A stretch of 64,000 bases of DNA, taken from assembly GCA_900317975.1 (NCBI GenBank), contig ONIZ01000001.1, positions 135,479 through 199,478 of the forward strand, given 5' to 3'. The position numbers and the translations under genes are program-made. Below the pieces are notes generated by a model, which was not told where the DNA came from, made no database searches, and was given only the letters and a program-made list of their open reading frames with translations. The DNA comes from an uncultured Bacillota bacterium (GTDB taxonomy: Bacteria; Bacillota_I; Bacilli_A; RF39; UBA660). The first letter of the stretch is position 1. Each line of letters starts with the position of its first letter. Shown here piece by piece: positions 2,808 to 29,070 of this stretch.

Positions 2808-3836
2808 ATGATTAATAATCAATTATTGTATATTGGACTAAACGGTTTAGCAGGATCAGGGAAAGACACACTTGCAAAAATGCTTAATGTAATACTAATG
2901 AAAGATTGGAAAAACATTGATGAATGTAAAGAATTCTATGATAAATTCTATGTTCGTCCTAATGTTTCTGCAACATATTATGAAAAGACAAAAGAATATG
3001 ACAATAAAGTAATATGTCTGGCTTTTGCTGATCAGTTAAAGACAATATGTTCTGATATCTTCGGTATTCCACTTAAATATTTCTATTTCAACAAATCAAC
3101 CGCATGGGTATGTATCAACCATAATTTTGAATATACGGAAATACGTCCTGATAATGTTGTTACCTGTGAAGACTATTTCTATAATATATCAGAATATAGT
3201 GAATCAGAAACAAAATATTGGATGTCATTACGTGATGTACTTGTCTATATAGGAACATATGTATTGCAATCCGAAGTCAATAAGAATGTATTTGTCAATA
3301 TTGTCTCAAACAAGATAAACAATCTTTTATTGAAGAATCATAGTTTGTCTTATGCTATCATAACAGATGTAAGATTCACTCATGAGATTGAATTCATCAG
3401 AAAGAATAACGGAATAACAATCAAGATAATCAGGGATAGTGTTGTTCCTTTGTCAAATATTGCAGAGCATGATCTTGATGATGAAGACAGATATGATTAT
3501 GTAATCTACAATAATGATACCTATGATGACTTGTTCAATCAGGTATGGGATATTGTCCATAGTAACAAAGAGTTTGAAAATGATGTTGTAGATATGACAA
3601 CCAGAGAAAATATCAACAACTATTTGAGAAAGATTGATGAAGATGAATATCAGGTTTGTTCTCCCTATGGTATACAACAAATTGGTCATGAAAATGGAGA
3701 GATATCAATGATAGACCTAAAGGGCGGTCCAACAATTTATATAGATCAAGAGATACCCGGTACATCTATCATACCATATAGTATTGTTATGGATGAAAAT
3801 ACAAGTAAGTTCATAATAAAAGGGAATAGCGATTAA
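2808..3836 (+). CDS. deoxynucleoside monophosphate kinase (T4 gp1-like) with a C-terminal extension of about 90 aa
   Basis: P-loop GLNGLAGSGKDTLAKML. Later segments (SLRDVLVYIGTYVL, IITDVRFTHEIEFIR, IKIIRD, AEHDLD) run in the same order as T4 gp1 (SGKDT ... RRLMQALGTD ... VPDTRQDHEMD ... HVVRP ... HITE), recalled from memory. Confidence 0.65.
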   Translation: MINNQLLYIGLNGLAGSGKDTLAKMLNVILMKDWKNIDECKEFYDKFYVRPNVSATYYEKTKEYDNKVICLAFADQLKTICSDIFGIPLKYFYFNKSTAWVCINHNFEYTEIRPDNVVTCEDYFYNISEYSESETKYWMSLRDVLVYIGTYVLQSEVNKNVFVNIVSNKINNLLLKNHSLSYAIITDVRFTHEIEFIRKNNGITIKIIRDSVVPLSNIAEHDLDDEDRYDYVIYNNDTYDDLFNQVWDIVHSNKEFENDVVDMTTRENINNYLRKIDEDEYQVCSPYGIQQIGHENGEISMIDLKGGPTIYIDQEIPGTSIIPYSIVMDENTSKFIIKGNSD

Positions 3837-3846
3837 CTATTCCCTT
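3820..3846. terminator. bidirectional stem-loop between convergent genes
   Basis: Perfect 10-bp stem, aagggaatag (3820..3829) with ctattccctt (3837..3846), and a 7-nt loop that contains the stop codon of 2808..3836. Confidence 0.55.
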
Positions 3847-3851
3847 AGTTT

Positions 3852-4430
3852 TTATACTTTATTTTGTGGTAATGGTTTTATGTTAGTAAATGGAAATATT
3901 TCCCAATTTGGATTCTTGCATTTCCATTTTGTTATGTCTCCAATTGTCTTTAGCCGTTCACAACCTTGAAACATACATTTTAGATCTATGTCTTCAGTTA
4001 TATTCCAATTAGATATGTCCCCAATGTCTATAAGACTCCTACAGTTATTGAACATAAATGCCATGCTTTTCACATTAGATATATCCCAATTTTCTAATCC
4101 TATTACTTTTCGAAGATATTTGCAACCACCAAACATTGCAGATAGATTTGTAACATGAGATATATCCCAATCAGATACATCAACTTCAACAATGTTCCAA
4201 GATGAAAATGTATTTGAAAGATTTTTAATATTTGATATATCCACATTATTCATATCAAGAATATTACTTTCTCCAATCTTATCACTTATTATATGTTGTA
4301 GTTCTGAAAAATTCTTTGGAACAAGATTTGATTGAATATTGTCTCTTGATAACCTGAATTTCTCAGTTATATACCCATGCAAACATGGGATCCTTTCAGC
4401 TTCTGAAATATAGTGATTTAGGTTTTTCAT
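3852..4430 (-). CDS. DUF285 / BspA-related 26-residue-repeat protein with a CTS-like N-terminus
   Basis: Repeats: VSDWDISHVTNLSAMFGGCKYL, LENWDISNVKSMAFMFNNCRSL, ISNWNITEDIDLKCMFQGCERL. N-terminus is MKNLNHYISE. Confidence 0.65.
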   Translation of the reverse strand: MKNLNHYISEAERIPCLHGYITEKFRLSRDNIQSNLVPKNFSELQHIISDKIGESNILDMNNVDISNIKNLSNTFSSWNIVEVDVSDWDISHVTNLSAMFGGCKYLRKVIGLENWDISNVKSMAFMFNNCRSLIDIGDISNWNITEDIDLKCMFQGCERLKTIGDITKWKCKNPNWEIFPFTNIKPLPQNKV

Positions 4431-5011
4431 ACGTAATCAAATAGATGCAGTATATGTTTTGAAGATATCATTTTCTTAGTGATCTTTGGATTATTCTTTT
4501 CTGCATATCTCTTTATTGTCTGTCCAAGATTAAGATGTCTTATGTTATGAAAGAATGATTTGTCAACATGCCAATTGAATAGACAACAGTTGTATTCTTT
4601 TATTTCTTTTATGATATTTTCATCAAACCATAATGTAGTCCATGGCTTCTTTATTCCATACCATATCAATGCTGGGTATATATGTTCTAGACCAGTTATT
4701 TCATCAATGAATGATTTCTTAACTTTTTCATTTCCTCTTTCAAGTATTATTCTGAAATAAGCATCAGGATATTTTTCTGAAAAATATTTGCATAAGTTGT
4801 CAATTGACAAGAAAGAGAAGTCTTTTAATGTTGCCTTGTCATGACAGAATGTCCAATGCTTGTTCTTCAATGTTATACGAATATCAAAGAATCTTACATT
4901 TTCTGCGTATTGTTCATCTAATGTCTTCTTTTGGCATCTCCAGACAAATGAAAACAATTCATTGAAGAAATTAGACTTTAGATATGTTAAAGAATCATGT
5001 GTACCTATCAT
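4427..5011 (-). CDS. PI-PLC X-domain-like phosphodiesterase (tentative)
   Basis: MIGTHDSLTY resembles the PI-PLC (I)PGTHDS motif. NVRFFDIRI followed by FCHD resembles GIRxxDIR ... HHG. The protein is short at 194 aa. Confidence 0.4.
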   Translation of the reverse strand: MIGTHDSLTYLKSNFFNELFSFVWRCQKKTLDEQYAENVRFFDIRITLKNKHWTFCHDKATLKDFSFLSIDNLCKYFSEKYPDAYFRIILERGNEKVKKSFIDEITGLEHIYPALIWYGIKKPWTTLWFDENIIKEIKEYNCCLFNWHVDKSFFHNIRHLNLGQTIKRYAEKNNPKITKKMISSKHILHLFDYV

Positions 5012-5030
5012 CTAAATATATAAATATATT

Positions 5031-6674
5031 TTATTTTTGAATTCTAAGTTCAGAATATTCATCTTCAAGTAGATGCTTCTTAGCAGGATTTACAAGATAT
5101 GCTAATTTGCTCATTAAGTCTCTATTCAACAATACCTTTTGTTTCTTCTTTCTATTGTCAACTAAAGCAAACTTAGCATTAAGGAGTTTTCTTGTTCCTA
5201 TTTGGATGCATGGGATCTCTACAACTGTTCTTTCTTCAGTCACTTGTCCAACAATAGCTTTAGATACATCTACTTTCTTGAAGTTATATTCTTTTCCTTC
5301 AATTGTTGCAATGACATCATCACCTTGTATAGATATCTTCTCACAGCCAATTGTTGATGCCTTTGCTCCATTTCCAGTATCAAATTTTGCTTCAAATGTT
5401 ATCTCTTCTTCATTTTCCATTGTGAATGTAATGTCTTCAAGATATCCAACTGATTTTGGTGACAATACTAATTCATTTATGTCATTTATATTGTCTAATA
5501 ATATTTTGCAGAAATTTTCATCAATTACATCACTTATACCTTCCGTACCAGGAGAAGCATTGAATTCAAGAACAACGTTGTCACCAATTTCTGGATTTGA
5601 TCCCTTGACAAGTGGCATGATGTCAACAGCACACCAAGGCATTCCAGATATCTTTGCTACTTTAAGAGCTATCTCTTCTTGTTCTTTAGTCAATTCAACC
5701 TTTTCAGCAACAGCACCTAAAGAGACATTTGAACGGAAGTCACCACCAATCTTCTTACGTTTCATCTGAGCAAGAATCTTCTGTTTTGTTCTCATTGTCA
5801 ATACATGTACTCTTATGTCACCACCATCTGCTTCTTCTTTCTTCTGTACTAATAGTTCTCTTTCTTCATCAATAGCAAATATAGCTTGAAGGATTGAAAG
5901 AATAGTCTTGCCGTTTACCATGAATACACCAGTACCACCATGACCATCCAGGATCTTTACAACATATTCATATTTTTCAGATTCATCAGAATTCTGATCT
6001 TTATATATGTCTTTCAATTTCTTCTTAAGACTATCCATTCCGTCCTTTATGTCATTCTTAGATACTAATGTGAACTTTGGTTGTGGTATCTCATATCTTT
6101 CCATTAATACTGCGGACTGGTATTTGTTGCATGCCTTCTTCAATGACTGAGCAGGATTGATTACAAATATACCCCAGTTCTGGATTTCTTTTATACATTC
6201 CATACATTCTTCAGACTCTTGAGCTCCAAGACGAACAATAGCAATAGTATCAATATTTGACTGATGATCAATAGTATACTTAAGCTTATCATCCCATATA
6301 TCTATCTTGTCATCAGTTGCTTTATAGTTAAGCTGTTCTGCTACAAATATTTCTAGTTTGATGTCTTTTCCCTTTATAGCATCTTCCAAGTTCTTTAATG
6401 TCTTGTTCTTAGATGCATCTCTTTCATTAGTGAAGAACAATATATTTTTAAAGAAATATTCTTTGTTAGCTCCTAATGGGTCCTTTTCTGATGGTTCTAT
6501 ATCTAACTCATTTGTAGCTGATTTGTCTTCTTGTGATTCACCAGGTTCTTCAAGATCTACTGGATCAATAGCAGAATCATCTTTTGGCAATAAGTCATCA
6601 TCTGCTTCTAAGACTCTATTTATGTCATTCAAATTAGTCAGATAAGTATGTAAATGTTCTTTAAACTTTTTCAT
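5031..6674 (-). CDS. RimK-like ATP-grasp ligase fused to a C-terminal retropepsin-like (PF05618, ATP-dependent zinc protease / RimB-like) domain
   Basis: ATP-grasp motifs: GHGGTGVFMV, GGDIRVHVL, GGDFRSNVSLGA, CAVDIMP, LEFNASPG. C-terminal AKFDTGNGAKAS ... ALVDNR ... LLNRDL matches the AKIDTGARTSS ... LTDR ... LLGR pattern. The N-terminal region of about 70 aa is acidic. Confidence 0.7.
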   Translation of the reverse strand: MKKFKEHLHTYLTNLNDINRVLEADDDLLPKDDSAIDPVDLEEPGESQEDKSATNELDIEPSEKDPLGANKEYFFKNILFFTNERDASKNKTLKNLEDAIKGKDIKLEIFVAEQLNYKATDDKIDIWDDKLKYTIDHQSNIDTIAIVRLGAQESEECMECIKEIQNWGIFVINPAQSLKKACNKYQSAVLMERYEIPQPKFTLVSKNDIKDGMDSLKKKLKDIYKDQNSDESEKYEYVVKILDGHGGTGVFMVNGKTILSILQAIFAIDEERELLVQKKEEADGGDIRVHVLTMRTKQKILAQMKRKKIGGDFRSNVSLGAVAEKVELTKEQEEIALKVAKISGMPWCAVDIMPLVKGSNPEIGDNVVLEFNASPGTEGISDVIDENFCKILLDNINDINELVLSPKSVGYLEDITFTMENEEEITFEAKFDTGNGAKASTIGCEKISIQGDDVIATIEGKEYNFKKVDVSKAIVGQVTEERTVVEIPCIQIGTRKLLNAKFALVDNRKKKQKVLLNRDLMSKLAYLVNPAKKHLLEDEYSELRIQK

Positions 6675-6707
6675 GTATATATTATCTCATATATTTTATT
6701 ATGTTTC

Positions 6708-6724
6708 TATATAATTAAAAATAA
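6708..6724 (-). promoter_or_regulatory. motif A, copy 3
   Basis: Exact 17-mer, 33 nt upstream of the ATG at 6674. Confidence 0.5.
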
Positions 6725-6726
6725 AA

Positions 6727-6746
6727 TTTGACTATTTTAATATTAT
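6727..6746 (+). promoter_or_regulatory. motif B, copy 2
   Basis: tttgACTATtttaatattat, immediately after motif A and upstream of 6813. Confidence 0.45.
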
Positions 6747-6812
6747 GATAAGCCACATATAAATATGTTGATGATCATATGAAAAATATAAATATATGTA
6801 AAATATAGTTAA

Positions 6813-7373
6813 ATGAAGTTAATAATTATAGAGGGAACAGACAATGTTGGAAAAGATACACTTATTTCAAGAATTATGGAAAACTACGATGTAATGACAC
6901 TCATTCATTGTGGTAAGCCAAAGTCAAAAGATCATCCAAATGAATCACAGGACAGTTTATTCAATTTCTATATAAAAAGTATAATAAACAAGAAATATAA
7001 TAATTCAGATGTCATTATTATGAACAGATCTCATATAGGTGAAGCAGTCTATGGAGTATTATATAGGAATAGGGACATAAATGAAGTATTGAAGAAGATT
7101 CATGATTGGAATGTTGAGCTTATGAAATGTCCAGACCTTGAAGTAAAGTATATACAATTATTAAGTACATCCGAAAGACTATTGAAGAACAATGAAGATG
7201 GACAGTCATTATCAAAGGGAAATAGTTCTAATATAATAAAAGAAACAGCATTGTTTACAGAAGCATATGTAAAGTCATTTTTAGACAAGAAACTTATATA
7301 TGTAGATGATAATGGAGAATTCAGGACAAAAGAAGATATATTTGATGAAGCATGGGATTTCATTAATAAATAA
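6813..7373 (+). CDS. thymidylate-kinase-like P-loop (d)NMP kinase
   Basis: MKLIIIEGTDNVGKDTL matches the Tmk-type IEGxDxxGK(T/S)T P-loop. Size is 186 aa. Confidence 0.55.
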   Translation: MKLIIIEGTDNVGKDTLISRIMENYDVMTLIHCGKPKSKDHPNESQDSLFNFYIKSIINKKYNNSDVIIMNRSHIGEAVYGVLYRNRDINEVLKKIHDWNVELMKCPDLEVKYIQLLSTSERLLKNNEDGQSLSKGNSSNIIKETALFTEAYVKSFLDKKLIYVDDNGEFRTKEDIFDEAWDFINK

Positions 7374-7397
7374 AAAGATATTAGATAAGAAGATATT

Positions 7398-8102
7398 ATG
7401 ATTAAGACAGAAGATATATTGAAACAGTTCAAAGAAAAGTATGATAATAAAGATTTTAGAATAATTGGCAATAATGTACAGCAAGCAAAGACAATTGAGT
7501 TACAGAATGTACAGTTTGAAGTAGATAAGCCATGGATAGTAAGAGAACCAAACTATGATTATTTCAATAGAGAGCTTGAATGGTATAAGTCAGAATCATT
7601 GAATGTGAATGATATCCCAGAAGGTGCTCCAACAATGTGGAAGTCTTGTGCAACACCAATAGGATATATTAATTCAAATTATGGGTGGATGATCTGGTCT
7701 AAAGACAACTATAATCAATTTGATCATTGTCTACAAAAACTAATTGAGGATCCACATACAAGAGAGGCATGTATGATATATAATAGACCATCAATGCAGG
7801 AAGACTATAATAAATTTGGCATGCATGATTTTTGTTGTACATATTCTGTTCAATGTTTCATAAATGAAGACAAAGAAGGAAAGAAGCATCTAAAATATAT
7901 TGTATATATGAGAAGTAATGATGCAGTATTTGGATTTGATAATGATGCATTATGGCATAAGTATGTTCAGCAAATGCTAAGGAATAGACTTAGTGAACAT
8001 TTTAATGAAGAATTCATAGCAGACAATATTATATGGAATGCAGGATCATTACATATTTATGAAAGACATTTCAAATATTTAGAGGATGGACAAAACGAGT
8101 GA
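7398..8102 (+). CDS. deoxycytidylate 5-hydroxymethyltransferase (T4 gp42-like, thymidylate synthase superfamily)
   Basis: Long colinear matches to T4 gp42 as recalled: RELEWYKSESLNVNDIP, INSNYGWMIWSKDNYNQFDHC, MIYNRPSMQEDYNKFGMHDFCCT, YMRSNDAVFGFDNDALW, IIWNAGSLHIYERHF. The nucleophile Cys and the Asp that replaces the ThyA Asn are both present. Confidence 0.8.
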   Translation: MIKTEDILKQFKEKYDNKDFRIIGNNVQQAKTIELQNVQFEVDKPWIVREPNYDYFNRELEWYKSESLNVNDIPEGAPTMWKSCATPIGYINSNYGWMIWSKDNYNQFDHCLQKLIEDPHTREACMIYNRPSMQEDYNKFGMHDFCCTYSVQCFINEDKEGKKHLKYIVYMRSNDAVFGFDNDALWHKYVQQMLRNRLSEHFNEEFIADNIIWNAGSLHIYERHFKYLEDGQNE

Positions 8103-8676
8103 CATAAAGAGAAAGTTGTTAGATGAGCTTAAAGCTAATAATGTAAAAGATTGCGGATATAATTGCCAAAGTGGAAGAAGATATGTAGAAGTAAAGAATG
8201 CATTGTTTGAAGTTAACAAAGATCGTATTTTTGAAAACATTCCTAAATTGTCTTATATGGATGATTCTTGGTATGTAGCAAATTATGAGCCTTTGCTAGA
8301 AAGGAATGATCAATATAATAAATGCATTAATAAGTTGATTGAGAATCCAGCATCACGTCAAGCAGTTCTCATATTAGTAGATCCTAAAGAATATGACAAT
8401 GAAGACAAAACATTCATATGTACAATGTATATGCATATCTTTCTCAATCATATAGAAGAAAATAAATATGAATTGGAATATATTGTGCATATGAGGTCAA
8501 ATGATGCTATAGAATTCATAACCGATCATCAATGGCACCAGAAAATTTATTTTCGAATTTTTAATGAATTAATTGAGAAAACGAACTATATTATAATAAA
8601 GAAACCTATTGTTTGGAATGCAGATACTATTCATCTATATGAGCAGTTTTGGGATCAAGCAATAGACAATTATTAA
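8086..8676 (+). CDS. divergent second gp42/ThyA-family paralog
   Basis: FICTMYMHIF (Cys), HMRSNDAIEFITDHQWH (RSND plus Asp), IVWNADTIHLYEQFW. It lacks the N-terminal segment of about 40 aa. It overlaps the upstream paralog by 17 nt. Confidence 0.6.
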   Translation: MDKTSDIKRKLLDELKANNVKDCGYNCQSGRRYVEVKNALFEVNKDRIFENIPKLSYMDDSWYVANYEPLLERNDQYNKCINKLIENPASRQAVLILVDPKEYDNEDKTFICTMYMHIFLNHIEENKYELEYIVHMRSNDAIEFITDHQWHQKIYFRIFNELIEKTNYIIIKKPIVWNADTIHLYEQFWDQAIDNY

Positions 8677-8695
8677 CTTATAATATATATAGAGT

Positions 8696-9379
8696 ATGAA
8701 ACATAAGATATCCGCATCAATAATGTGTGTAGACAACCTATTAGATCTACAGTCAGAAATAAAGACATTAGAAGACATAGGTATTGACTATTTGCATTTG
8801 GATGCGATGGATGGGCATTTTGTAAATAATATTACATTTGGCCCAGATATTTTCAATGCTGTTCAAAAATGTTCTTCAATTCCTTGTGACTATCATCTTA
8901 TGCTTGATAATCCATTACCATTCATACAAAGACTTGATCTTAACAATAATGATATTGTGACTATTCATGCTGAGATTGATTCACAAAGATTTGAAGAAGC
9001 ATTTGAATATTTGAAGACATTAAAGAAAAGAGGAGTAAAGATAGGAGTAGCAATCAATCCGGGTACATCAATAGAATCATTGGTGAAATACTTGGATGAT
9101 ATTGATGTGATATTAGTCATGCTTATCAATCCTGGTTTTGCTGGTCAACCTATTATTGATGGAATATTACAAAAGCCTGTATATATCAGGAAATATCTAG
9201 ATTCACTTAATCATAAGAAGATAATGATATCTGTTGATGGTGGTGTATCAGTGGAAAGAGCAAAATATCTTTCAAAGAATGGTATAGACATGTTTGTTGG
9301 TGGTACTTCTGGTCTGTTCATAAAGAATAGTGATTTGAAAAAGAATGCAGAAATATTGAGAAAGAACATAAACAATTAA
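8696..9379 (+). CDS. rpe: ribulose-phosphate 3-epimerase family protein
   Basis: SIMCVD ... HLDAMDGHFVNNITFGP ... YHLML ... INPGFAGQ ... SVDGGV ... VGGTS is colinear with E. coli Rpe. Confidence 0.8.
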   Translation: MKHKISASIMCVDNLLDLQSEIKTLEDIGIDYLHLDAMDGHFVNNITFGPDIFNAVQKCSSIPCDYHLMLDNPLPFIQRLDLNNNDIVTIHAEIDSQRFEEAFEYLKTLKKRGVKIGVAINPGTSIESLVKYLDDIDVILVMLINPGFAGQPIIDGILQKPVYIRKYLDSLNHKKIMISVDGGVSVERAKYLSKNGIDMFVGGTSGLFIKNSDLKKNAEILRKNINN

Positions 9380-9413
9380 GACATAAATAAAACATAATAA
9401 TTAGATAATATAT

Positions 9414-11075
9414 ATGAAAGTTTTTATTACAACATCTGGAATTGGATCAAGACTATTAGAGCTTACAAAATATACTAATAAGTCAATGATCAAAATAGGC
9501 AAGAAACCTGTTATATCTTATATTATTGATGAATATCCTGAAGATACAGAGTTTGTCATTTCTCTTGGATATTTTGGTGATCACATCAAACAATATCTTG
9601 AGTTAGCATATCCTGACAAGAAGATTACATTTGTAAATGTTGATAACTATGCTGGTCCAGGATCATCTCAAGTCTATTCACAATTACAAGCTGAACAATA
9701 TCTTCAAGAGCCATTTATCTATCATGATTGTGATACTATTGTTCAGAACCTTCAAGAGCAGATACCAATGGATTTCAAATATAATTTCTTAGTAGGTTAT
9801 GAGACAAATTCAGAGTTATATGATGCTTTTGATTATGATGTGAATACTAAGACAAATGACAAGTATGACTCATATAAGCTTATAAAGACATATATGAAGC
9901 CTGATTCATTAGTAGGTATGCTTTCATTCATTGGTATTTGTGGTATATATGACTATAAGACATTCTGGAAATATATGCATAAAGCTTATGAGAATGAGAC
10001 AGTTCCCTATGACTTCTTGGTCTATCACAAATATGGAATGTTCAAAAACAGTCTTAGAGCAATAAAAGTTGATAACTGGACAGATACTGGAAATATTGCT
10101 GGTGTAAAGAATGCAAGAAAGATGTTCAAGGATCAGTTCTCAATATTAGACAAGAATGATCAGGCTATCTTCATCATAAAAGACAAGGTAATCAAGTTCT
10201 TTGCTAAAGATGGAGTAGTAGACAATCTCCTTGTTCATTATAATGCTATAAAAGAATTCTGTCAGCCAATAACTCAGAAGACAAAGAACTTTATGTGCTA
10301 TGACTATATTGATGCAGAGAATGCTATAGACAAAATGAATCCTGTAAGATTTGAGTCATTTATGAACACACTTAAGGATTCAGGTTTCTGGGACAACAAG
10401 GAATGGATTGACAAAGAATTGTTCTTTACATGTATGCATAATTTCTATCTTAACAAGAACATACAACGTGTCAATCAGTTCAAGGAATTCTATCAGGTTA
10501 CAGAAGACAAAGACATCTATGTGAATGACATTCTTATTCCAAAAGAATGGACTATTGAAAGGATGCTTAATGAGATGACAAAACTTGATGAATGGAAGAA
10601 TAGTGTACCTTCTGGATGGCATGGTGATTTTGTATTAGACAATATATTATATGATAGTAAGAATGAAAAATATATATTGTTAGACTGGAGACCTAACTTT
10701 GGGGAAATCATAGAATACGGAGATAAAAACTATGACTTTGGAAAGATGAATCATAACATCACATTCAATTTCAATAGTGCTTATAATGATTTGTTCTCCA
10801 TTGATGAATCCGATCCAGATAATATCTATATTAATATATTATGCAACAATTATGTCTATGAATGCAAAGAGGTATTAAGAAAATTTGTAGAAGAAAACTA
10901 TAATGTAAGATTCCCTTATATTGAAATGATTACTGGAGCATGTTGGGTAAGTATGTCACCATTGTATTTCCTCAATCCAGTATCAAAGTTCTTGTTCTAT
11001 ATGGGTAAACTTACTCTTTATGTAAACTTAATGAAATTACTTGGAAATAAGATAACAACAAAATTTGACAAATAA
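9414..11075 (+). CDS. bifunctional sugar-phosphate nucleotidyltransferase (N-terminal) and APH/choline-kinase-fold kinase (C-terminal)
   Basis: N-terminus MKVFITTSGIGSRLLELTKYTNKSMIKIGKKPVISYII matches the GxGxRL ... K signature. C-terminus WHGDFVLDNILYD ... YILLDWRPNFG matches the HGDxxxxN plus D kinase motifs. Confidence 0.65.
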   Translation: MKVFITTSGIGSRLLELTKYTNKSMIKIGKKPVISYIIDEYPEDTEFVISLGYFGDHIKQYLELAYPDKKITFVNVDNYAGPGSSQVYSQLQAEQYLQEPFIYHDCDTIVQNLQEQIPMDFKYNFLVGYETNSELYDAFDYDVNTKTNDKYDSYKLIKTYMKPDSLVGMLSFIGICGIYDYKTFWKYMHKAYENETVPYDFLVYHKYGMFKNSLRAIKVDNWTDTGNIAGVKNARKMFKDQFSILDKNDQAIFIIKDKVIKFFAKDGVVDNLLVHYNAIKEFCQPITQKTKNFMCYDYIDAENAIDKMNPVRFESFMNTLKDSGFWDNKEWIDKELFFTCMHNFYLNKNIQRVNQFKEFYQVTEDKDIYVNDILIPKEWTIERMLNEMTKLDEWKNSVPSGWHGDFVLDNILYDSKNEKYILLDWRPNFGEIIEYGDKNYDFGKMNHNITFNFNSAYNDLFSIDESDPDNIYINILCNNYVYECKEVLRKFVEENYNVRFPYIEMITGACWVSMSPLYFLNPVSKFLFYMGKLTLYVNLMKLLGNKITTKFDK

Positions 11076-11078
11076 GAT

Positions 11079-11993
11079 ATGAAGATAGCCGGAATTACAG
11101 TTGCTTACAATGAAGGTAATATGGTGAAATATGTAATGCCATATTATGAGAAAATGGGTATTGATAAATTGATAGTCTATGACAATATGTCTACTGATGA
11201 CATGTGTGAAAAACTTTCTAAATATCCATTTGTGGAGATTCGTCATTTTGATACTAATGGGAAGTTTGATGACAGAAAGAATTCTGATCTCAAGGAAGAA
11301 GTGTCTTATGAATTACTTCAAGAAGGATATGATTGGGTATATACTGGAGACTTTGATGAAATAGTCTATTGTGAAGGTGATTTCAAGAAGGAACTTGAGA
11401 AAATTGAGGAATTAGGTGGAACAGTACTTTGTAGAGACATGATCCAGCCATTCAATCCATTGCCTTATGACTTTGATGAGACAAAACTTATTCATGAACA
11501 ATGTACTCATTTCCTTACATGGCATGACTGGTCAAGTACATGGGGTGGATCAAAGGTATTGTTGAGAAGTAAGAAAGTACCGAAGATAAAGTTGTCATTA
11601 GGTGCCCATGGAACAGGATTTCCAAAGAAGGGTATTGAGACAGATCCAGTATTGTTTGGCTATCCTTTCATCACATTCCATCTCAAATATGTTGACTTTA
11701 CTGCATTAGAGCATAATTCTCACGAAAAGCATGCAAGAATACAATGGAGATTAGATGTCCCAACATGTACAGCAGTAGATGCATCATTTACAAAACGTCT
11801 TTATTCTCGTACAATGGGTGATGCTGGTATAAAGAATACTATAGATAAATTAATGAAGAAGACAAGTAAACTTAATATTGCTCCTGGTTGGGAATCATTC
11901 AAGGAATACTATGATAAAAACTATAAGATGAATATGACTAAATTTAAAAATATTAAACACGTAAAAAGATTAGATTATGAACAGAACAGCTGA
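11079..11993 (+). CDS. GT-A fold glycosyltransferase (GT2-like)
   Basis: ITVAYNEGNMV ... LIVYDNMSTDD ... GDFDEIV (DxD-like). Confidence 0.5.
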   Translation: MKIAGITVAYNEGNMVKYVMPYYEKMGIDKLIVYDNMSTDDMCEKLSKYPFVEIRHFDTNGKFDDRKNSDLKEEVSYELLQEGYDWVYTGDFDEIVYCEGDFKKELEKIEELGGTVLCRDMIQPFNPLPYDFDETKLIHEQCTHFLTWHDWSSTWGGSKVLLRSKKVPKIKLSLGAHGTGFPKKGIETDPVLFGYPFITFHLKYVDFTALEHNSHEKHARIQWRLDVPTCTAVDASFTKRLYSRTMGDAGIKNTIDKLMKKTSKLNIAPGWESFKEYYDKNYKMNMTKFKNIKHVKRLDYEQNS

Positions 11994-13323
11994 AAAGAAC
12001 ATTTTGATCGGAAAAATTGGAAAATCAATTAAATTCAAGAACTTAGACATTAGAACGGGTGGTGATGCATGCATGATATTCTATTCATCAATTGCAAGAA
12101 TGAATCCTGAATATAACTTCTATTGGATTGGCCCAAACCAGATGAACAAGCTTAGTCAGGAGGAGTATGACTATATATTCCCTAACCATAACGTATTCTC
12201 TGCTTATGGATCAGATTATGACAACCCTAATGCACATCCATTCCAGCCAATATTGGATTATTTCAAAAATAATGACATAAAGATTGACTTCGCTTTGCTT
12301 ATGTCTGGAATGTGCTCAGGTCTCAATGTACCGAATTTCATGAAGAGTAAGAAGACTGGTGAATATGCTAAGATCTTGAATGCATTCAAAAACTATGTTG
12401 GTCCCTATATCTGGACACTTAATGAAACAAATGTGCCTTTCTATCTTATTTCAGAGGATGCAAGATATATTACAACAAATGCTACTGATCTCTGTAACAG
12501 GGAAAGACTTATCTTTACACAAACAAATGGTTATTTCAATCCTATTCCCCATATCACATCATTGACAGACTTCACATTGAAAGAAGATAGCTCAATCAAA
12601 TGTATCTATGGATATGTTGAGAGAATATTTATGATGGGTCTTAGTCATGACTGGAAAGAGAAGATTGATATTGACAGGAAACTTCATTCTACTGGAAACA
12701 GACTTATTGTTATCTCAAATGGATGTGGTCAGAAAGATATCAATAGAGCAAATGGCGGAAAGGGTTCAAGACTTCCTGAATACAAGAAATATATCATTGA
12801 CAATCTTAAGAATACCGAATATTCTGGTACAAAGATCTATGGACAGTGGGATGACAAGACATATGCTAAATATCCTGATACTGTCATTGACAAGCCACTT
12901 GTAGAACTTGAAGATGAAGTAGCAGATGCTCGTTATTCATTAGTATATTCTATCATGCCTGGGTTTGTTACTGTAAAAGCTTGGGAAATGATCATCAAGG
13001 GTCTTATCCCATTTATCCATCCCGATTATGACAAAGACAGACTTCTTGGACTTCCTGAATATTGTTATCTTAAGGATGAGAAAGACTTGTTGATAAAGAT
13101 GAGAGAACTTGATGCTCATGATGAATTATATCTACGCTTATTGAATAATTGCTTTAATTGCATATCAGAAGATGATCTCAATGGTAAGCGAATGAACAAT
13201 TTCATATTCAACAAGATTGCAGAAGATCTGGGATTTGAGTATAAAGAGAAAGAAGGATGTGAATCTATTTTTGATCATTTCTCAAAGACTGTATTTGATC
13301 CTTCAAAAGTTATAAATAAATAG
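11977..13323 (+). CDS. possible DNA beta-glucosyltransferase-like protein (T4 BGT-like, tentative)
   Basis: PFYLISEDARYIT resembles T4 BGT IYYLFTDIRLPF, which holds the catalytic Asp. VTVKAWEMIIKGLIPFIHPDYD resembles ITLRVWETMASDAVMLIDEEFD. Both comparisons are from memory. Overlaps the upstream GT by 17 nt. Confidence 0.4.
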   Translation: MNRTAEKNILIGKIGKSIKFKNLDIRTGGDACMIFYSSIARMNPEYNFYWIGPNQMNKLSQEEYDYIFPNHNVFSAYGSDYDNPNAHPFQPILDYFKNNDIKIDFALLMSGMCSGLNVPNFMKSKKTGEYAKILNAFKNYVGPYIWTLNETNVPFYLISEDARYITTNATDLCNRERLIFTQTNGYFNPIPHITSLTDFTLKEDSSIKCIYGYVERIFMMGLSHDWKEKIDIDRKLHSTGNRLIVISNGCGQKDINRANGGKGSRLPEYKKYIIDNLKNTEYSGTKIYGQWDDKTYAKYPDTVIDKPLVELEDEVADARYSLVYSIMPGFVTVKAWEMIIKGLIPFIHPDYDKDRLLGLPEYCYLKDEKDLLIKMRELDAHDELYLRLLNNCFNCISEDDLNGKRMNNFIFNKIAEDLGFEYKEKEGCESIFDHFSKTVFDPSKVINK

Positions 13324-13332
13324 ACAATATAT

Positions 13333-13824
13333 ATGAACAAGATAATTGTAATTAGCGATATTGATGGTTGCTTGACAGATGGAGGACTTTATTATACTGC
13401 TGATGGCAAAGTAATGAAGAAGTTTGGAGTTGGTGATCATGAAGGAGTAAAGCTTTTACGAAAGAACAATATAGATATCCTGTTTATCACTGCCGATAAG
13501 ACAGGATATCCTATTGTCAAACGTAGAATAGATGATATGAAATGTGATCTTGTTGTTGTAAATGAAATAGAACGATTAGACTTCATTAAAGAATATGTGA
13601 AAGAATATGAACAAGTGGTATTCTTTGGAGATGGTCTTGGGGATGCTAATGTGAAGAGCAAAATCCCAGAAATATATTTCATAACTCCAAGAAACGCCAG
13701 AAATGAAGCTAAATATGTTTCTGACTATATCACCGAAAACAAAGGTAGTGAAGGAGCTTTCTTAGATCTTGCTATACATGTTTCTTGGAAAACAAATACA
13801 TATTATAATAAACTATATGAATAG
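13333..13824 (+). CDS. KdsC-family HAD phosphatase (KDO-8-P / KDN-9-P phosphatase type)
   Basis: VISDIDGCLTDGGLYYTADGKVMKKFGVGDHEGVKLL ... FFGDGLGD is typical of the HAD-IIIA KdsC pattern. Confidence 0.75.
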   Translation: MNKIIVISDIDGCLTDGGLYYTADGKVMKKFGVGDHEGVKLLRKNNIDILFITADKTGYPIVKRRIDDMKCDLVVVNEIERLDFIKEYVKEYEQVVFFGDGLGDANVKSKIPEIYFITPRNARNEAKYVSDYITENKGSEGAFLDLAIHVSWKTNTYYNKLYE

Positions 13825-15109
13825 ACAAATAAGATGGGCAGCAATACAACCGCTTACTGGAGGTATGTATCTTGGGGCTGAAGAAGCTATAGGAAATAAA
13901 GCCGAATGGATCATGTCATTCAAAGGATTAGATACTGTCAAATATTCAAAGACTGATCCAACACAAATGACATCTGTTGGCAATGAATATAACCTATTGA
14001 AATATCTAGAAAAGAAAGGGAGATCTGTACCCTATTATGTCATTAATAGTCCAATGTTTGATATTGACATAAACAGTACAAATGTTGACATTACTTTAGA
14101 TGGTGACAAGGCAACTCCTGATTATAATGATATTGACATAATTGTTGGTGTTCCTGTTTGTTCAGGTCTTTCAATGGTCACAAGTGGTAGTGAAGAGACA
14201 AAGAAGCAGAGAAACTGCAATATGCAATGGATGGCTAATTATACATTACAAGTAATAAGGCCAAAGGTATATATATTTGAGAATGCTCCAACATTGATGA
14301 CAGAACGTGGTGAGTATCTAAGAGAATGGTTTAATGAATTAGCATCTTTGAATGGTTATTCTATTCTCTATTATAAGACAGATACTATTCTTCATAACAA
14401 TCCGCAAAAACGTCCTCGTACATTTGTCATTTTTGTAAAGCATAACAAGTATGAGGCACAACAAGATCCACCATTGTTTGATTGGGAAAAGAAACCTATA
14501 TCATTAGAAGATTTTTTGAACAATATACCAGAAGGACTTGAGCAAGATGTTCCTGTATCAACAAGCCCAAATAACTTCTATTTGAAAGACTTTATGAATG
14601 AAGAATATAATAATGACTGGAAGAAACTTATCAATGGATCCGTCATGAACTTCATCATCAAAGAAAAGAAATTAGACAAGTTGATTAAGCATACTGAAAA
14701 TAATGACAAATATGGAGATGAGAACAAGGAGAAGACATTGAAATATTTCAATCATATTAAGAAGAAGAAAGAAATGGGATTGAATTTCTATGGTAATGAT
14801 CTTGTATATTTCAAAGACAAACTTCCTTCTGTTCAATTTAGAGCAATCCCTAATATGGTACATATAACAAAGGACAGAATATATACTATAAGAGAATATC
14901 TTACATTTATGGGAATGCCTTATGACTTTATCTTATATGGAGACAAGTCTAATCTTCCAAAGATCGCTCAGAATGTTCCAGTAGGTACAGCAAAATTCAT
15001 AGTTGAACAAGCAGTAAAGATCATTGAGAACTGGGGACAAGAAAGAACAACAAATCATAATGCGTTATATCAAAACAATATAGAACAAAAGACAAGAAAC
15101 GGGGATTAA
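13817..15109 (+). CDS. DNA (cytosine-5)-methyltransferase-fold enzyme
   Basis: Motifs in order: PLTGGMYLG (I), GVPVCSGLS (IV), IFENAPTL (VI), QKRPRTFVIF (VIII), REYLTFMGMPYDF (IX), AQNVPVGTAKFI (X). I use the ATG at 13817, which overlaps the upstream stop as ATGAATAG. The track start at 13769 is a TTG. Confidence 0.75.
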   Translation: MNRQIRWAAIQPLTGGMYLGAEEAIGNKAEWIMSFKGLDTVKYSKTDPTQMTSVGNEYNLLKYLEKKGRSVPYYVINSPMFDIDINSTNVDITLDGDKATPDYNDIDIIVGVPVCSGLSMVTSGSEETKKQRNCNMQWMANYTLQVIRPKVYIFENAPTLMTERGEYLREWFNELASLNGYSILYYKTDTILHNNPQKRPRTFVIFVKHNKYEAQQDPPLFDWEKKPISLEDFLNNIPEGLEQDVPVSTSPNNFYLKDFMNEEYNNDWKKLINGSVMNFIIKEKKLDKLIKHTENNDKYGDENKEKTLKYFNHIKKKKEMGLNFYGNDLVYFKDKLPSVQFRAIPNMVHITKDRIYTIREYLTFMGMPYDFILYGDKSNLPKIAQNVPVGTAKFIVEQAVKIIENWGQERTTNHNALYQNNIEQKTRNGD

Positions 15110-15126
15110 TTTCCCTGTTTTTTTTT
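15097..15126 (+). terminator. rho-independent terminator
   Basis: aaacgggga (15097..15105) pairs with tccctgttt (15112..15120), including one G-U pair. The stem runs into a run of about nine T. Confidence 0.6.
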
Positions 15127-24703: not shown

Positions 24704-26320
24704 TTAATTGCCATTTATAATTTGAATATCTCCATTAGTATCTGGTTCATATTCATTAATGATATCTGGATCTGCCTCTGGTTCTGCATTATTATTTATG
24801 ATTTGAATATCTCCATCATCAGTTTCAAATTCTATTTCAATGTCAGGAATTTCTTCAGGTAGAGGTTCTTGAATATTGATTACATAATTCAATATTGTTG
24901 CATTATAGTTTTCAGATCCTTCAAATGTTACTGTTATTGTAGCATTTCCTGTTGCATCCTTGAATGTAAGATTTCCTTCATTGTCTACAGTTACAAGATC
25001 TTCATTAGAAGAAATGAAAGTAACAGGTAATGAATGAGGATTGTTGATTTCTATCTTAGCAAGATCAATCTCATCTTTATATAATGTTACTGGAGAAACT
25101 GGCATTGCATTATTGAATGATATTCCAGAATCTTGCTTACTACCCTTTACAATTGTTATCATGACATCCATAAATGTTGCAGCATAAAGATCAGTACCCT
25201 TATATTGAATGCTTAATGCAACATTTCCTACACGTGATAAAGCTGGCGTAATCTTATGTTCTGCTTCGTTTATTGAAATCCATGAAGCATTTGAAGTAGC
25301 AACAATAGACAAATTACCATCTAATGGTAAGTTATTTGGATTTGAAATCCATTCAGTAATATCATAGATAGATCCTATTTCAATTGTTATATTTTTCTCT
25401 ATCATTGAAAGACCTGATGCATTCTTACGGAATGGTAATGAAAGAGAAGCAGAAAAATATGTTCCATCATAGTAAGGCTCTGTACAAGCATATATGATAA
25501 CATTACCAGATTTGTTTGCTTTGAATGTCATCTCACCAGTCTGATCAATACTTACAATATCACTATTTGATGAAAGATATGTAATCTTCTGATTTGTAGT
25601 ATTTTGTGGTAGTATATTGAATCCATAGATCTGTTTTACTTGATCCTGTGTAGATGCATATGTTGTCTCAAATGAACGCATATTAGCTCCATTATAAGTG
25701 AAATTGATTTCTTCAGGTTTTACTCTGAATCTCTCTTCAATGACATGTGAATAATCATGTACTTCATTCCACTGATCATAGTAATATTCTCCACCATCAG
25801 ATAGAAGTTCATAGTCAATCTCATCATAACCACCGATTTCATTCTTAGTAAAATATTGAACACTTCCATCAGTAACAATATGATCAAAATCTTCTACCTT
25901 TACAAATTTTGATCCATCTGGAATATAGCAAAATGTTGTAGGAGCAAGATCAGAAAAGAAGATTGTTGGTGGTACACGTGTTTCAGGATCTTCTTTTTTT
26001 GTAAACTGGATTTCTGTTAATGAGGTACATCCATTGAAAACATTTGGTCCAACATAATCAATAGTTTCTGGAAGTTCAATCTTCTTCAACTTTACACAGT
26101 TTTCAAATGCATTTCTTTTGATTGTTGTAATCATTGATGGGAATTCAACCTTTGTCAAATCATCACAATTCTTGAATGCATAAGCACAAATCTCATTAGT
26201 ATTTTCCAATCCAATCTTTACATTATGAACACCTGAACGAGTGAAATTATAAGTAAATGGAAATACAGTAGATTCATCTAAACTAATATTTACATCATCT
26301 ATTATTATTTTATTTACCAT
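24704..26320 (-). CDS. BspA-type leucine-rich-repeat (LRR_5) protein with two or three Big_2 Ig-like domains
   Basis: ICAYAFKNCDDLTKVEFPSMITTIKRNAFENCVKLKKIELPETIDYVGPNVFNGCTSLTEIQF. Also YLSSNSDIVSIDQTGEMTFKANKSGNVIIYA and FISSNEDLVTVDNEGNLTFKDATGNATITV. Confidence 0.7.
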   Translation of the reverse strand: MVNKIIIDDVNISLDESTVFPFTYNFTRSGVHNVKIGLENTNEICAYAFKNCDDLTKVEFPSMITTIKRNAFENCVKLKKIELPETIDYVGPNVFNGCTSLTEIQFTKKEDPETRVPPTIFFSDLAPTTFCYIPDGSKFVKVEDFDHIVTDGSVQYFTKNEIGGYDEIDYELLSDGGEYYYDQWNEVHDYSHVIEERFRVKPEEINFTYNGANMRSFETTYASTQDQVKQIYGFNILPQNTTNQKITYLSSNSDIVSIDQTGEMTFKANKSGNVIIYACTEPYYDGTYFSASLSLPFRKNASGLSMIEKNITIEIGSIYDITEWISNPNNLPLDGNLSIVATSNASWISINEAEHKITPALSRVGNVALSIQYKGTDLYAATFMDVMITIVKGSKQDSGISFNNAMPVSPVTLYKDEIDLAKIEINNPHSLPVTFISSNEDLVTVDNEGNLTFKDATGNATITVTFEGSENYNATILNYVINIQEPLPEEIPDIEIEFETDDGDIQIINNNAEPEADPDIINEYEPDTNGDIQIINGN

Positions 26321-26857: not shown

Positions 26858-27307
26858 ATGACATCATTCATCAAGAATATGAAGCCCAAGAAAGGGTTCT
26901 ATAAGCAAGGAATAGTCAATCCAAAATTGTTGAAGAAATATGCGGATTCTTTAAAGAATGAACCTATTATCTATAGAAGTGGATTAGAACTACAATTCAT
27001 CCAATATTGTGAAAATAATCCATCTATTATAAAATGGGCGTCTGAACCAATAGAGATTCCATATTTCTGTAGATTAGACCAAAAAGAACATAAATACTAT
27101 CCTGACTATATTCTAGAAAACAAGCAAGGGAACAAGGTCATCGTAGAAGTAAAGCCTTATAATCAGACAATAAAGCCAGATATGACAGATACTATTTGGC
27201 TGAAAGAAGCATGGGTAAAGAATATAGACAAATGGACTGCAGCAAAAGAATTTGCAGAAAAGCATAACATGAAATTCATTATAGTAACAGAAAAGTTCTT
27301 CACATAA
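26858..27307 (+). CDS. PD-(D/E)XK nuclease, T4 gp4-like head completion nuclease (tentative)
   Basis: YRSGLELQFIQYCENNPSIIKWASEPIEIPYF ... KYYPDYILENKQGNKVIVEVKP has the D ... E-x-K nuclease layout. Length is 149 aa, and I recall T4 gp4 as about 150 aa. Confidence 0.5.
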   Translation: MTSFIKNMKPKKGFYKQGIVNPKLLKKYADSLKNEPIIYRSGLELQFIQYCENNPSIIKWASEPIEIPYFCRLDQKEHKYYPDYILENKQGNKVIVEVKPYNQTIKPDMTDTIWLKEAWVKNIDKWTAAKEFAEKHNMKFIIVTEKFFT

Positions 27308-28021: not shown

Positions 28022-28138
28022 ATTTAAGTCTCCAGGTTCTAACAACATTTGTTATATATTGGAGACAGTTCAAACAATAAATTTAAGTCTCCAGGACAGT
28101 TCAAACAATAAATTTAAGTCTCCAGGTTCTAACAACAT
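27998..28138 (+). repeat. nested tandem direct repeats (59-bp period, with an internal 31-bp duplication) that copy the 3' end of the upstream gene
   Basis: tattggagacagttcaaacaataaatttaagtctccagg starts at 27998 and again at 28057. gacagttcaaacaataaatttaagtctccag is tandem at 28064 and 28095. ttctaacaacat closes copies 1 and 3. Each full copy contains the inverted repeat tggagac ... gtctcca. Confidence 0.85.
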
Positions 28139-28166
28139 AAATAAAATATATATAGAGGCAAAATTT

Positions 28167-29021: not shown

Positions 29022-29070
29022 CCCATAGTATTTCTATTTTAATAATATTAAAAATATTTTTTTACAATAT

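Follow-up and report, generated by a model that had tools for sequence, protein, structure and literature searches.

Gene content and organization of the locus

A 64-kb stretch of contig ONIZ01000001.1, referred to below as the window, was analysed; it has a GC content of ~30% and comes from a genome of roughly 140-190 kb. A plus-strand operon at 6813-15109 and a kinase gene at 2808-3836 are proposed, by homology throughout, to belong to a large uncultivated phage and to serve the hypermodification of cytosine in its DNA, and a probability of about 0.6 is given to this reading. The phage DNA most likely contains glycosyl-hydroxymethylcytosine, the chemistry being predicted from homology and DNA being the putative acceptor. 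Functions were assigned throughout from sequence and predicted structure.

The open reading frames (ORFs) of note were found in the ORF listing of the window at the coordinates given in an earlier annotation made from the sequence alone (hereafter, the initial annotation), and the plus-strand run described there is indeed broken by one minus-strand block, at 3852-6674. The operon encodes, in order, a Tmk-like nucleotide kinase, two thymidylate synthase (TS) homologues (TS1 and TS2), an Rpe-family epimerase, a nucleotidyltransferase-kinase fusion, a GT-A and a GT-B glycosyltransferase (GT), a KdsC-type phosphatase, and a C5 cytosine methyltransferase-family enzyme. Little or no space separates its genes, and some overlap: TS1 with TS2, and GT-A with GT-B, while the ATG of the methyltransferase gene at 13817 overlaps the stop codon of the phosphatase gene. 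The 3' end is marked by a terminator-like hairpin followed by a T-run (15101-15115, plus strand). Two IMG/VR contigs, of 157 and 193 kb, and additional metagenome contigs have the genes in the same order, with protein identities of 47-84%, and the arrangement is therefore not due to chance. Scans for related loci were pattern-based, so that divergent genes can escape them. When the region was compared with 50,697 phage records by megablast, zero matches were obtained. The hydroxymethylcytosine (hmC) pathway and transferase island described in the initial annotation thus appear, as predicted from the encoded proteins, as a T4-type hydroxymethylase, a sugar route, and a GT-B resembling T4 beta-glucosyltransferase (BGT) within one operon.

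Nucleotide kinases and thymidylate synthase homologues

Both kinases of the initial annotation were recovered by profile searches. The gene at 2808-3836 (plus strand) encodes a gp1-like deoxynucleoside monophosphate (dNMP) kinase (Pfam DNMK, E 4e-11; phrog_139, E 1e-35), and the first plus-strand gene of the operon (6813-7373) encodes a Tmk-like P-loop nucleotide kinase (phrog_761, E 1e-13), a homologue of the nucleotide kinase gp45 of RB69 (blastp E 6e-5) that is syntenic among relatives.

TS1 (7398-8102, plus strand) is a T4 gp42-type dCMP hydroxymethylase (5-hydroxymethyl-dCMP synthase) by its match to the structures 1b49 and 1b5e (phmmer E 4e-61), and its blastp identity is 47.8% over 230 aa to T4 gp42 and only 25% to RB69 gp48. 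Active-site residues were read from an alignment of the TS sequences with T4 gp42, RB69 gp48, and E. coli ThyA; in the ThyA reference used, all 17 known landmark residues were at the expected numbering. The hydroxymethylase signature was defined in ThyA numbering as Cys146, Asp177 (cytosine selection), an acidic residue at 143 (which admits water), and retention of Asp169. TS1 carries E58, W80, D143, C146, D169, and D177, the same residues as T4 gp42, and D143, C146, D169, and D177 are found in TS1 and in 11/11 full-length TS homologues sampled beside GT-B in relatives. On residue signature and identity, TS1 is judged a genuine T4-type dCMP hydroxymethylase. The strong gp42-like assignment thus held, and the possibility raised with it, that the protein is an ordinary dUMP-specific thymidylate synthase, is disfavoured for TS1 by Asp177 and Asp143. 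Because TS1 carries the T4 hydroxymethylase signature, the predicted base is 5-hydroxymethylcytosine and not 5-hydroxycytosine.

The second, divergent gp42 paralog of the initial annotation was also confirmed. TS2 (8086-8676, plus strand) is a short TS-fold protein with similarity to T4 gp42 (E 2e-8), and its AlphaFold2 model (pLDDT 92.3) has the thymidylate synthase fold, with T4 dCMP hydroxymethylase as the top Foldseek match (TMq 0.75) and the HY126 hydroxylase AfhB at rank 11 of the structural matches. The TS2 family comprises ~38 clusters, all of roughly 185-208 aa, in which Cys146, Arg166, Ser167, Asp169, Asp177, and Arg126 are invariant; Glu58 is missing, as is the Trp80/Trp82 segment, which forms the folate side of the pocket, and the nucleotide site is retained. 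Three other large phage contigs, with differing sugar cassettes, also have TS2 downstream of TS1, and in two of them it is the very next gene. The start of TS2 overlaps the end of TS1 in the window, in locus L029 (TS2 at 9001-9582), and in an NCBI contig of 245.8 kb, and five small ORFs separate the two genes in L028 (TS2 at 9001-9579). The overlap suggests that the two genes are translationally coupled and that their products possibly form a heterodimer; TS2 could otherwise be an enzyme with a different chemistry. TS2 is absent from close relatives that retain the rest of the operon. A link between TS2 and GT-A was considered and rejected: it holds in the close clade (both genes in two loci, neither in four) and fails in the three distant contigs.

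The residue at position 169 bears on the reading that the base is the arabinosyl-5-hydroxycytosine of RB69 and DLP3; this would make TS1 or TS2 a flavin-dependent dCMP hydroxylase and join the sugar to 5-hydroxycytosine by an ether bond. An Asn in place of Asp169 is diagnostic of flavin-dependent 5-hydroxy-dCMP synthases (PMC13326640), and this D169N replacement is absent from the window, where both TS1 and TS2 have Asp169, invariant across the TS2 family. The locus does have in common with RB69-type systems an AfhE-like fusion, a Tmk kinase like RB69 gp45, and a HAD phosphatase, and TS2, which has no folate-side residues, includes AfhB among its structural matches. On the other side, TS1 is 48% identical to T4 gp42 as against 25% to RB69 gp48, and the transferase is T4 BGT-like with no significant blastp similarity to RB69 gp46/47. 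The 5-hydroxycytosine chemistry was rejected on the Asp169 signature, and is held to be very improbable, the least probable of the readings weighed here.

Sugar-activation genes

The Rpe-family epimerase of the initial annotation (8696-9379, plus strand) is well supported (Pfam E 8e-50; NCBIfam NF004076, 191.6 bits against a cutoff of 165) and contains the motifs HLDAMDGHF, NPGFAGQ, and VDGG. It scored 183.8 bits with TIGR01163 (Rpe) and 181.2 bits with the AlsE model, both below the respective cutoffs, and with model scores this nearly equal ribulose-phosphate 3-epimerase and allulose-6-phosphate 3-epimerase are inseparable.

The gene at 9414-11075 (plus strand) encodes a protein of 553 aa, in agreement with the initial annotation a fusion of an N-terminal sugar-1-phosphate nucleotidyltransferase, with the motif GIGSRL (GxGxRL), and a C-terminal APH/choline-kinase-like kinase, with the motif HGDFVLDN...LLDW (HGDxxxxN...D); a homologue of the fusion gave an NTP_transf_3 match and a weak APH match. 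When the family alignment of the fusion (A3) was compared with concatenated RB69 gp53 and gp52 by hhalign, a probability of 96.5% was obtained (E 9e-10, 470 columns), and on this alignment the protein is taken to be a full-length homologue of RB69 gp53:52 and so an AfhE-type enzyme. The identity to RB69 is only ~22%, and hence the substrate is not inferable from it. The best match to the fusion in cultured collections was in Marine virus AG-345-E15, which has nothing else in common with the window.

The third sugar gene, at 13333-13824 (plus strand), encodes a KdsC/YrbI-type phosphatase (HAD subfamily IIIA), as the initial annotation had proposed. Its phmmer matches in the PDB were KdsC and KDN-9-P phosphatases (2p9j, E 1e-18; 3e81, E 1e-15; 1j8d, E 1e-13), and the nucleophile motif DxDxT is present as DIDGCLTD. 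The scores lie below the NCBIfam cutoffs for the KDN-9-P phosphatase and KdsC models and do not fix the substrate; from its family the enzyme is predicted to strip the distal phosphate from a sugar bisphosphate, or a phosphate from a sugar phosphate.

A homologous module is known from phages with arabinosylated DNA. A kinase-pyrophosphorylase fusion, a HAD phosphatase, and a sugar-phosphate isomerase lead to UDP-arabinose in RB69, DLP3, and HY126; in HY126, AfhE phosphorylates C1 of arabinose 5-phosphate and, after removal of the 5-phosphate by AfhF, forms UDP-arabinose (PMC13326640). A sequence search of the window with RB69 gp51 gave zero matches to the AfhF/gp51 type of phosphatase, which does occur in other cassettes. 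Among 80 metagenome loci with the fusion, a KdsC-like phosphatase was found in 18 and a gp51-like one in 17, and the two were never found together (0 loci), which looks like non-orthologous replacement of one step. Rpe-like genes were present in 20 of the 80, and in 14 of these 20 an HxlB-like SIS isomerase gene lay just upstream, so that SIS, Rpe, and fusion genes follow one another, in most cases with a KdsC-like phosphatase gene immediately after them. The Rpe loci with no SIS gene upstream were L030-L034, which form the clade of the window, and L047, a truncated contig.

The four-gene cassette of fixed order (HxlB-like SIS, Rpe-like, fusion, KdsC-like) is widespread in aquatic and gut contigs (L036, 6725-10104; L105, 5869-10069; L013, 4079-7451). 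It is surrounded in L036 and L105 by GT2/GT4 genes and sugar O-methyltransferase genes, and its nucleoside diphosphate (NDP)-sugar product appears uncharacterised.

An AfhE-type homologue, a phosphatase, and an epimerase are thus present in support of a phage-encoded route to an activated sugar. The accompanying argument, that the sugar is one the host does not supply, was not upheld: the sugar may be available from the host, given that Rpe interconverts ordinary host metabolites and that no isomerase is found in the window. The arabinose pathway, taken as an analogy, makes a pentose the most likely sugar, with D-arabinose as a first guess, in which case the isomerase would be host-supplied; ribose, xylulose, or a hexose of the allose/psicose type are possible alternatives.

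Glycosyltransferases

GT-B (11977-13323, plus strand) is a T4 BGT-like enzyme and a predicted hmC-DNA glycosyltransferase, named as a possibility in the initial annotation and strengthened by the Foldseek search proposed there. In the AlphaFold2 model (pLDDT 91.6) a GT-B fold is seen, with six T4 BGT entries among the top 11 Foldseek matches; GT4 enzymes score similarly. The matches to 1bgt, 1c3j, and 1bgu have E ~1e-6 and TM scores of 0.64-0.67 normalised to the target, and blastp with T4 BGT gave E 2e-4 over 149 aa. In the weak profile alignment of the two families, the invariant K334 and E337 fall on the nucleotide-binding R269 and E272 of BGT, and a counterpart of the catalytic Asp100 of BGT was not identified in the comparison.

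The GT-B family has at least 343 proteins, on contigs of up to 404 kb. In 20 IMG/VR loci with the family, a TS gene of the hydroxymethyl type is nearby wherever the upstream flank suffices, and the sugar genes between TS and GT-B vary: Rpe, fusion, and KdsC-type genes in one variant, a stand-alone nucleotidyltransferase with a HAD protein in another, and, assigned by eye, a HAD-kinase fusion with a cytidylyltransferase and a GDP-mannose-dehydratase-like enzyme in a third. In the viral loci recovered with the SIS protein, a BGT-like GT is directly beside the SIS-Rpe-fusion cassette in 6/10. Such modularity is an argument for the cassette as the source of the GT-B donor and for hmC DNA as the acceptor; on the genomic linkage to hydroxymethyl-type synthases, the predicted acceptor is hmC in duplex DNA.

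Upstream of GT-B, the gene at 11079-11993 (plus strand) encodes the GT-A glycosyltransferase of the initial annotation (Pfam Glyco_tranf_2_4, E 1e-12). It is present in L003/L032 and absent from L002/L034, L030, L031, and L033, that is, from 4 of 5 distinct close relatives, and a scan of viral contigs for GT-A relatives returned nothing. GT-A is accessory by this distribution and is predicted to add a second sugar.

Two cultured phages have a hydroxymethyl-type TS, a gp51-like phosphatase, and a T4 BGT-like GT: Pseudoalteromonas phage vB_Psh_XG4 (L110, PP712099.1 1-14215), which also carries a C5 methyltransferase, and Enterococcus phage 9183 (L008, MT939241.1 22742-41845), which also carries the nucleotidyltransferase-kinase fusion. 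Glycosylated hmC is predicted in the DNA of both, and no report of it was found. Glycosylated cytosines in enterococcal phages of this type were looked for in PMC11322646 and not found there.

C5 methyltransferase

The last gene of the operon (ORF 13769-15109, plus strand; likely start ATG at 13817, giving 13817-15109) encodes a C5 cytosine DNA methyltransferase-family enzyme (Pfam DNA_methylase, E 6e-21), as the C5-methyltransferase fold of the initial annotation had indicated. Across the family, motifs I (PLTGG), II, IV (PVC), VI (ENA), VIII (QKRPR), IX, and X (QNVP) are retained, the sequences in brackets being conserved in 15 members. In the M.HhaI reference used for numbering, the known landmark residues were at the expected positions, and Asn is retained at the position of M.HhaI 304, which CmoX enzymes replace by Arg. 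From its motifs the protein looks like an ordinary S-adenosylmethionine (SAM)-dependent cytosine methyltransferase. Carboxymethyl chemistry of the CmoX type was rejected on the sequence VPVC in place of SPPC and Asn in place of Arg (the Arg350 criterion), and the sequence matches of the enzyme in the PDB did not include 8YF3, a CmoX structure.

A methyltransferase gene of this family is near GT-B in 15/20 viral loci and is the most constant neighbour of GT-B. The family also occurs, at 28% identity, in S-TIM5-like cyanophages (L111, OP053361.1, cyanophage S-TIM61, 7977-9194), in which no T4 BGT-like GT is annotated near it; it is therefore not restricted to glycosylation clusters.

These observations bear on a reading in which cytosine is substituted in part or not at all, the main mark is 5-methylcytosine made by this enzyme, and the TS homologues serve nucleotide supply. 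The intact catalytic motifs, the constancy of the enzyme beside GT-B, its occurrence alone in the S-TIM5-like cyanophages, and the fact that no dCTPase was identified within the window are all consistent with it. Asp177 and Asp143 of TS1, however, mark a hydroxymethylase and not a dUMP methylase, a gp1-like kinase is present, and GT-B and the sugar cassette would be left unexplained, so that 5-methylcytosine as the main mark is considered quite improbable.

It is also conceivable that TS2, the methyltransferase, or both carry out a new chemistry at cytosine C5 and produce a second, non-glycosyl modified cytosine beside glycosyl-hmC; a Cys-adduct intermediate could, for example, exchange the hydroxymethyl oxygen for another nucleophile. 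C5 methyltransferases activate 5hmC in vitro for exchange with thiols. The TS2 family, in keeping with such a chemistry, retains the Cys, the nucleotide-binding residues, and Asp177 and loses E58 and W80; every contig examined has TS2 downstream of TS1, in most of them directly after it, and the methyltransferase is paradoxically linked to hydroxymethyl-type synthases. Against this stand the purely inferential nature of the idea, the absence of TS2 from close relatives with the rest of the operon, and the SAM-type motifs and Asn304 of the methyltransferase, for which ordinary methylation is the simpler explanation. The chance of such a second modified cytosine is rated as slim.

Proposed pathway and points against it

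For the proposed glycosyl-hmC system, the following steps are suggested. TS1, recognised by its residues as a gp42-type enzyme, would convert dCMP into 5-hydroxymethyl-dCMP (hmdCMP) with methylene-tetrahydrofolate, and the gp1-like kinase (giving hmdCDP), the Tmk-like kinase, or both would phosphorylate hmdCMP, after which the modified nucleotide would enter phage DNA in place of dC. In parallel, the Rpe-family enzyme, an epimerase by homology, would provide a ketose phosphate; a sugar phosphate would be phosphorylated at its anomeric position by the kinase domain of the fusion and would lose its distal phosphate to the KdsC-type phosphatase, and the nucleotidyltransferase domain of the fusion would form the NDP-sugar, the substrates being presumptive at each step. 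After replication, GT-B would move the sugar onto the hydroxymethyl group in DNA, and the optional GT-A would append a second sugar. The C5 methyltransferase, on the most conservative assignment, would methylate leftover unsubstituted cytosines.

That the product is hmC bearing a phage-made pentose or rare sugar (a disaccharide where GT-A is present), undescribed in any DNA, is tentatively put at somewhat less than an even chance. In the radical form of the proposal, TS2 would represent a folate-independent TS-fold chemistry, with the linked C5 methyltransferase making a second modified cytosine.

Several points weigh against the proposed system. GT-B is only weakly similar to T4 BGT in sequence (62 columns aligned by hhalign, probability 24%). 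The methyltransferase, with all its catalytic motifs, has no substrate if hmC fully replaces C; partial substitution of cytosine is the simplest reconciliation. Neither a clear dCTPase nor a MazG-type dCTPase was found within the 64-kb window. A SIS/arabinose-5-phosphate isomerase was not found in the window by tblastn with RB69 gp55 or by Pfam scans of the ORFs, and a pattern-based SIS scan of viral contigs did not return the related 157- and 193-kb contigs; the clade of the window therefore has an incomplete version of the widespread four-gene cassette. Rpe merely interconverts host metabolites, and the path from its product to an activated sugar is incomplete. Finally, the SIS-Rpe-fusion-KdsC cassette occurs in aquatic contigs amid GT2/GT4 and sugar O-methyltransferase genes, with no TS or GT-B gene within 8 kb, and is therefore not specific to DNA modification.

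The last point leads to the main rival, in which the DNA contains hmC, possibly glucosylated from host UDP-glucose, and the epimerase, fusion, phosphatase, and GT-A build a glycan of virion proteins or of the host envelope. The same cassette is found in clusters of GT2, GT4, and TylF/FkbM O-methyltransferase genes with no TS or GT-B gene near (L036, L105), further GT2 genes of the window lie amid lysis and tail-fibre genes, and sugar clusters of jumbo phages are interpreted by Iyer et al. as serving surface-polysaccharide modification (PMC7824862). In the window, however, the cassette is inside one operon, between TS1/TS2 and GT-B/methyltransferase; the viral cassette is beside a T4 BGT-like GT in 6/10 loci; and the homologous module of RB69, DLP3, and HY126 feeds DNA arabinosylation. 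A glycan destined for virion or host is accordingly regarded as unlikely, if more serious than the other alternatives.

Neighbouring genes in the window

The initial annotation had pointed to four more GT-like genes. Pfam matches were obtained for three, two GT2 proteins (28059-29021, GT2/GT92; 35484-36473, GT2) and a DUF5672 protein (29071-29916), and the remaining ORF (29864-30754) has no Pfam match. This second group (28059-30754 and 35484-36473) lies amid genes for a glucosaminidase, a Peptidase_G2 domain protein, and tail-fibre-like proteins. A part in the DNA system is not supported for this group, as nothing ties it to DNA and it lies among lysis and tail-fibre genes, and it more likely acts on virion or host glycans.

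The dUTPase-superfamily gene of the initial annotation (47346-48116, plus strand) does encode a dUTPase-fold domain, which is weak and confined to the C-terminal part: the Pfam dUTPase match (E 3e-5) covers just residues 159-252, and the match to NCBIfam dut (E 2e-7) is below the cutoff. As a possible dCTPase/dUTPase, the protein would supply or safeguard the pool of modified nucleotides; its link to the system is weak.

The minus-strand block at 3852-6674 encodes, by Pfam, a DUF285 protein (3852-4430), an unknown protein, and a RimK-type ATP-grasp enzyme; DUF285 proteins are multicopy in relatives. Between the convergent dNMP kinase and DUF285 genes is a perfect hairpin of 10-11 bp with T-runs on both strands (3820-3846), likely a bidirectional terminator. 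The ATP-grasp enzyme (5031-6674, minus strand) is a RimK-family alpha-L-glutamate ligase (Pfam RimK, E 8e-23; NCBIfam rimK_fam and MptN-like models below cutoffs), and its scores resemble those of the cofactor glutamate ligases MptN and CofF. Its gene is transcribed divergently from the operon, adjoins the Tmk-like and TS1 genes, and is kept beside them at 59-76% identity in many related large-phage contigs. The ligase may be part of the modification system or may glutamylate a cofactor such as folate.

A scan for sigma-70 promoters gave 105 sites against 93 expected and was uninformative at 30% GC. Elsewhere in the window are a BspA-type leucine-rich-repeat protein with Big_2 domains (24704-26320, minus strand), a TnsA-like/endonuclease I-like nuclease (26858-27307, plus strand), and three giant minus-strand ORFs at 38629-47226 (2865 aa), 49258-57555 (2765 aa), and 59234-63940 (1568 aa). 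The first of these has at its end a Peptidase_S74 domain, an intramolecular chaperone of the kind usual in tail fibres or spikes, and the other two gave zero Pfam matches.

Comparison with known systems

In T4, hmC and glucosyl-hmC are made with gp42, gp1, gp56, and alpha- and beta-glucosyltransferases. The locus is like T4 in its gp42-type hydroxymethylase with the same active-site signature, its gp1-like kinase, and its BGT-like GT-B with the basic/Glu pair for nucleotide binding. T4 uses host UDP-glucose and, unlike the locus, encodes no sugar-activation genes; it also has no second TS paralog, C5 methyltransferase, or GT-A, all of which are in the locus. No MazG-type dCTPase was found in the window.

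RB69, DLP3, and their relatives were shown by Lee et al. to contain arabinosyl-5-hydroxycytosine and not arabosyl-hmC, made by a flavin-dependent TS homologue, and the transferases of RB69 and DLP3 are described as resembling GT4-type enzymes (PMC13326640). With the reassignment of the 'arabinosyl-hmC' of RB69 to 5-hydroxycytosine, no pentosyl-hmC is currently validated (PMC13326640). The locus resembles this Afh pathway in the full-length fusion homologue, the kinase like RB69 gp45, the HAD phosphatase, and the clustering around TS. It differs in the base enzyme, a flavin hydroxylase with Asn169 in the Afh pathway and a hydroxymethyl type with Asp169 here; in the phosphatase, AfhF/gp51 there and a KdsC/YrbI type with no detectable similarity to RB69 gp51 here; in having an Rpe-family epimerase instead of an arabinose-5-phosphate isomerase; and in the transferase, RB69 gp46/47 there and a T4 BGT-like GT-B with an optional GT-A here. 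The Asn169 signature of the hydroxylase, an AfhF-type phosphatase, and an isomerase were each looked for in the window and not found, which places the locus outside the Afh pathway as defined. It works like a hybrid of a T4-like base part (gp42, gp1, BGT-like) and an RB69/HY126-like sugar activation.

Phage clusters of a methyltransferase, a TET (5mYOX) dioxygenase, and glycosyltransferases have been described (Burke 2021, PMC8256090; Pyle 2023, bioRxiv 10.1101/2023.12.21.572611), and phage GT-B genes were reported by Pyle et al. to be often near TS homologues, methyltransferases, epimerases, and APH-type kinases (bioRxiv 10.1101/2023.12.21.572611). A C5 methyltransferase beside DNA glycosyltransferases is common to these clusters and the locus; in the clusters, partner sugar-modifying enzymes set the donor, and the GT-B types are often near TS homologues. 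In the locus, hmC would come from a nucleotide-level synthase, which leaves the methyltransferase with no obvious role. No TET/JBP dioxygenase was found among the window ORFs scanned against Pfam, and the TET route was rejected on these scans.

The CmoX/CmoA/CmoY system for 5-carboxymethylcytosine (PMC12783734) is similar in its C5 methyltransferase-fold enzyme, its hypermodification context, and a nearby ATP-dependent ligase (RimK-like in the locus). It differs in the SPPC motif and the carboxy-SAM-binding Arg of its enzyme, as against PVC and Asn here, and in its AMP-forming ligase, as against an ATP-grasp ligase here, and CmoA was not found in the window.

The initial annotation had held that no combination of this kind was described. 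This is in part out of date, for the module of fusion, phosphatase, and isomerase is known and GT/TS clusters have been surveyed; the general kind, phage GT-B genes near TS homologues, epimerases, and APH-type kinases, is already known. The exact set of a hydroxymethyl-type base, Rpe, a KdsC-type phosphatase, and a T4 BGT-like GT was not found in the literature searched, and no paper was found there that combines a 3-epimerase with hmC glycosylation in a phage.

Significance

Hypermodified phage DNA is protected from restriction enzymes and CRISPR nucleases, and the pathways behind it yield new enzymes for labelling DNA. Two puzzles are posed by the locus, a conserved short TS paralog that has lost its folate side and a C5 methyltransferase in genomes expected to have no unmodified cytosine. 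The cultured relatives vB_Psh_XG4 and Enterococcus phage 9183 make the predictions directly testable. The sugar-activation route, a kinase/pyrophosphorylase fusion with a phosphatase, is a swappable module that pairs with 5-hydroxycytosine and also with classical hmC synthases and T4 BGT-like transferases, and it occurs in very large phages of gut/rumen type and of marine origin, on contigs of up to 435 kb.

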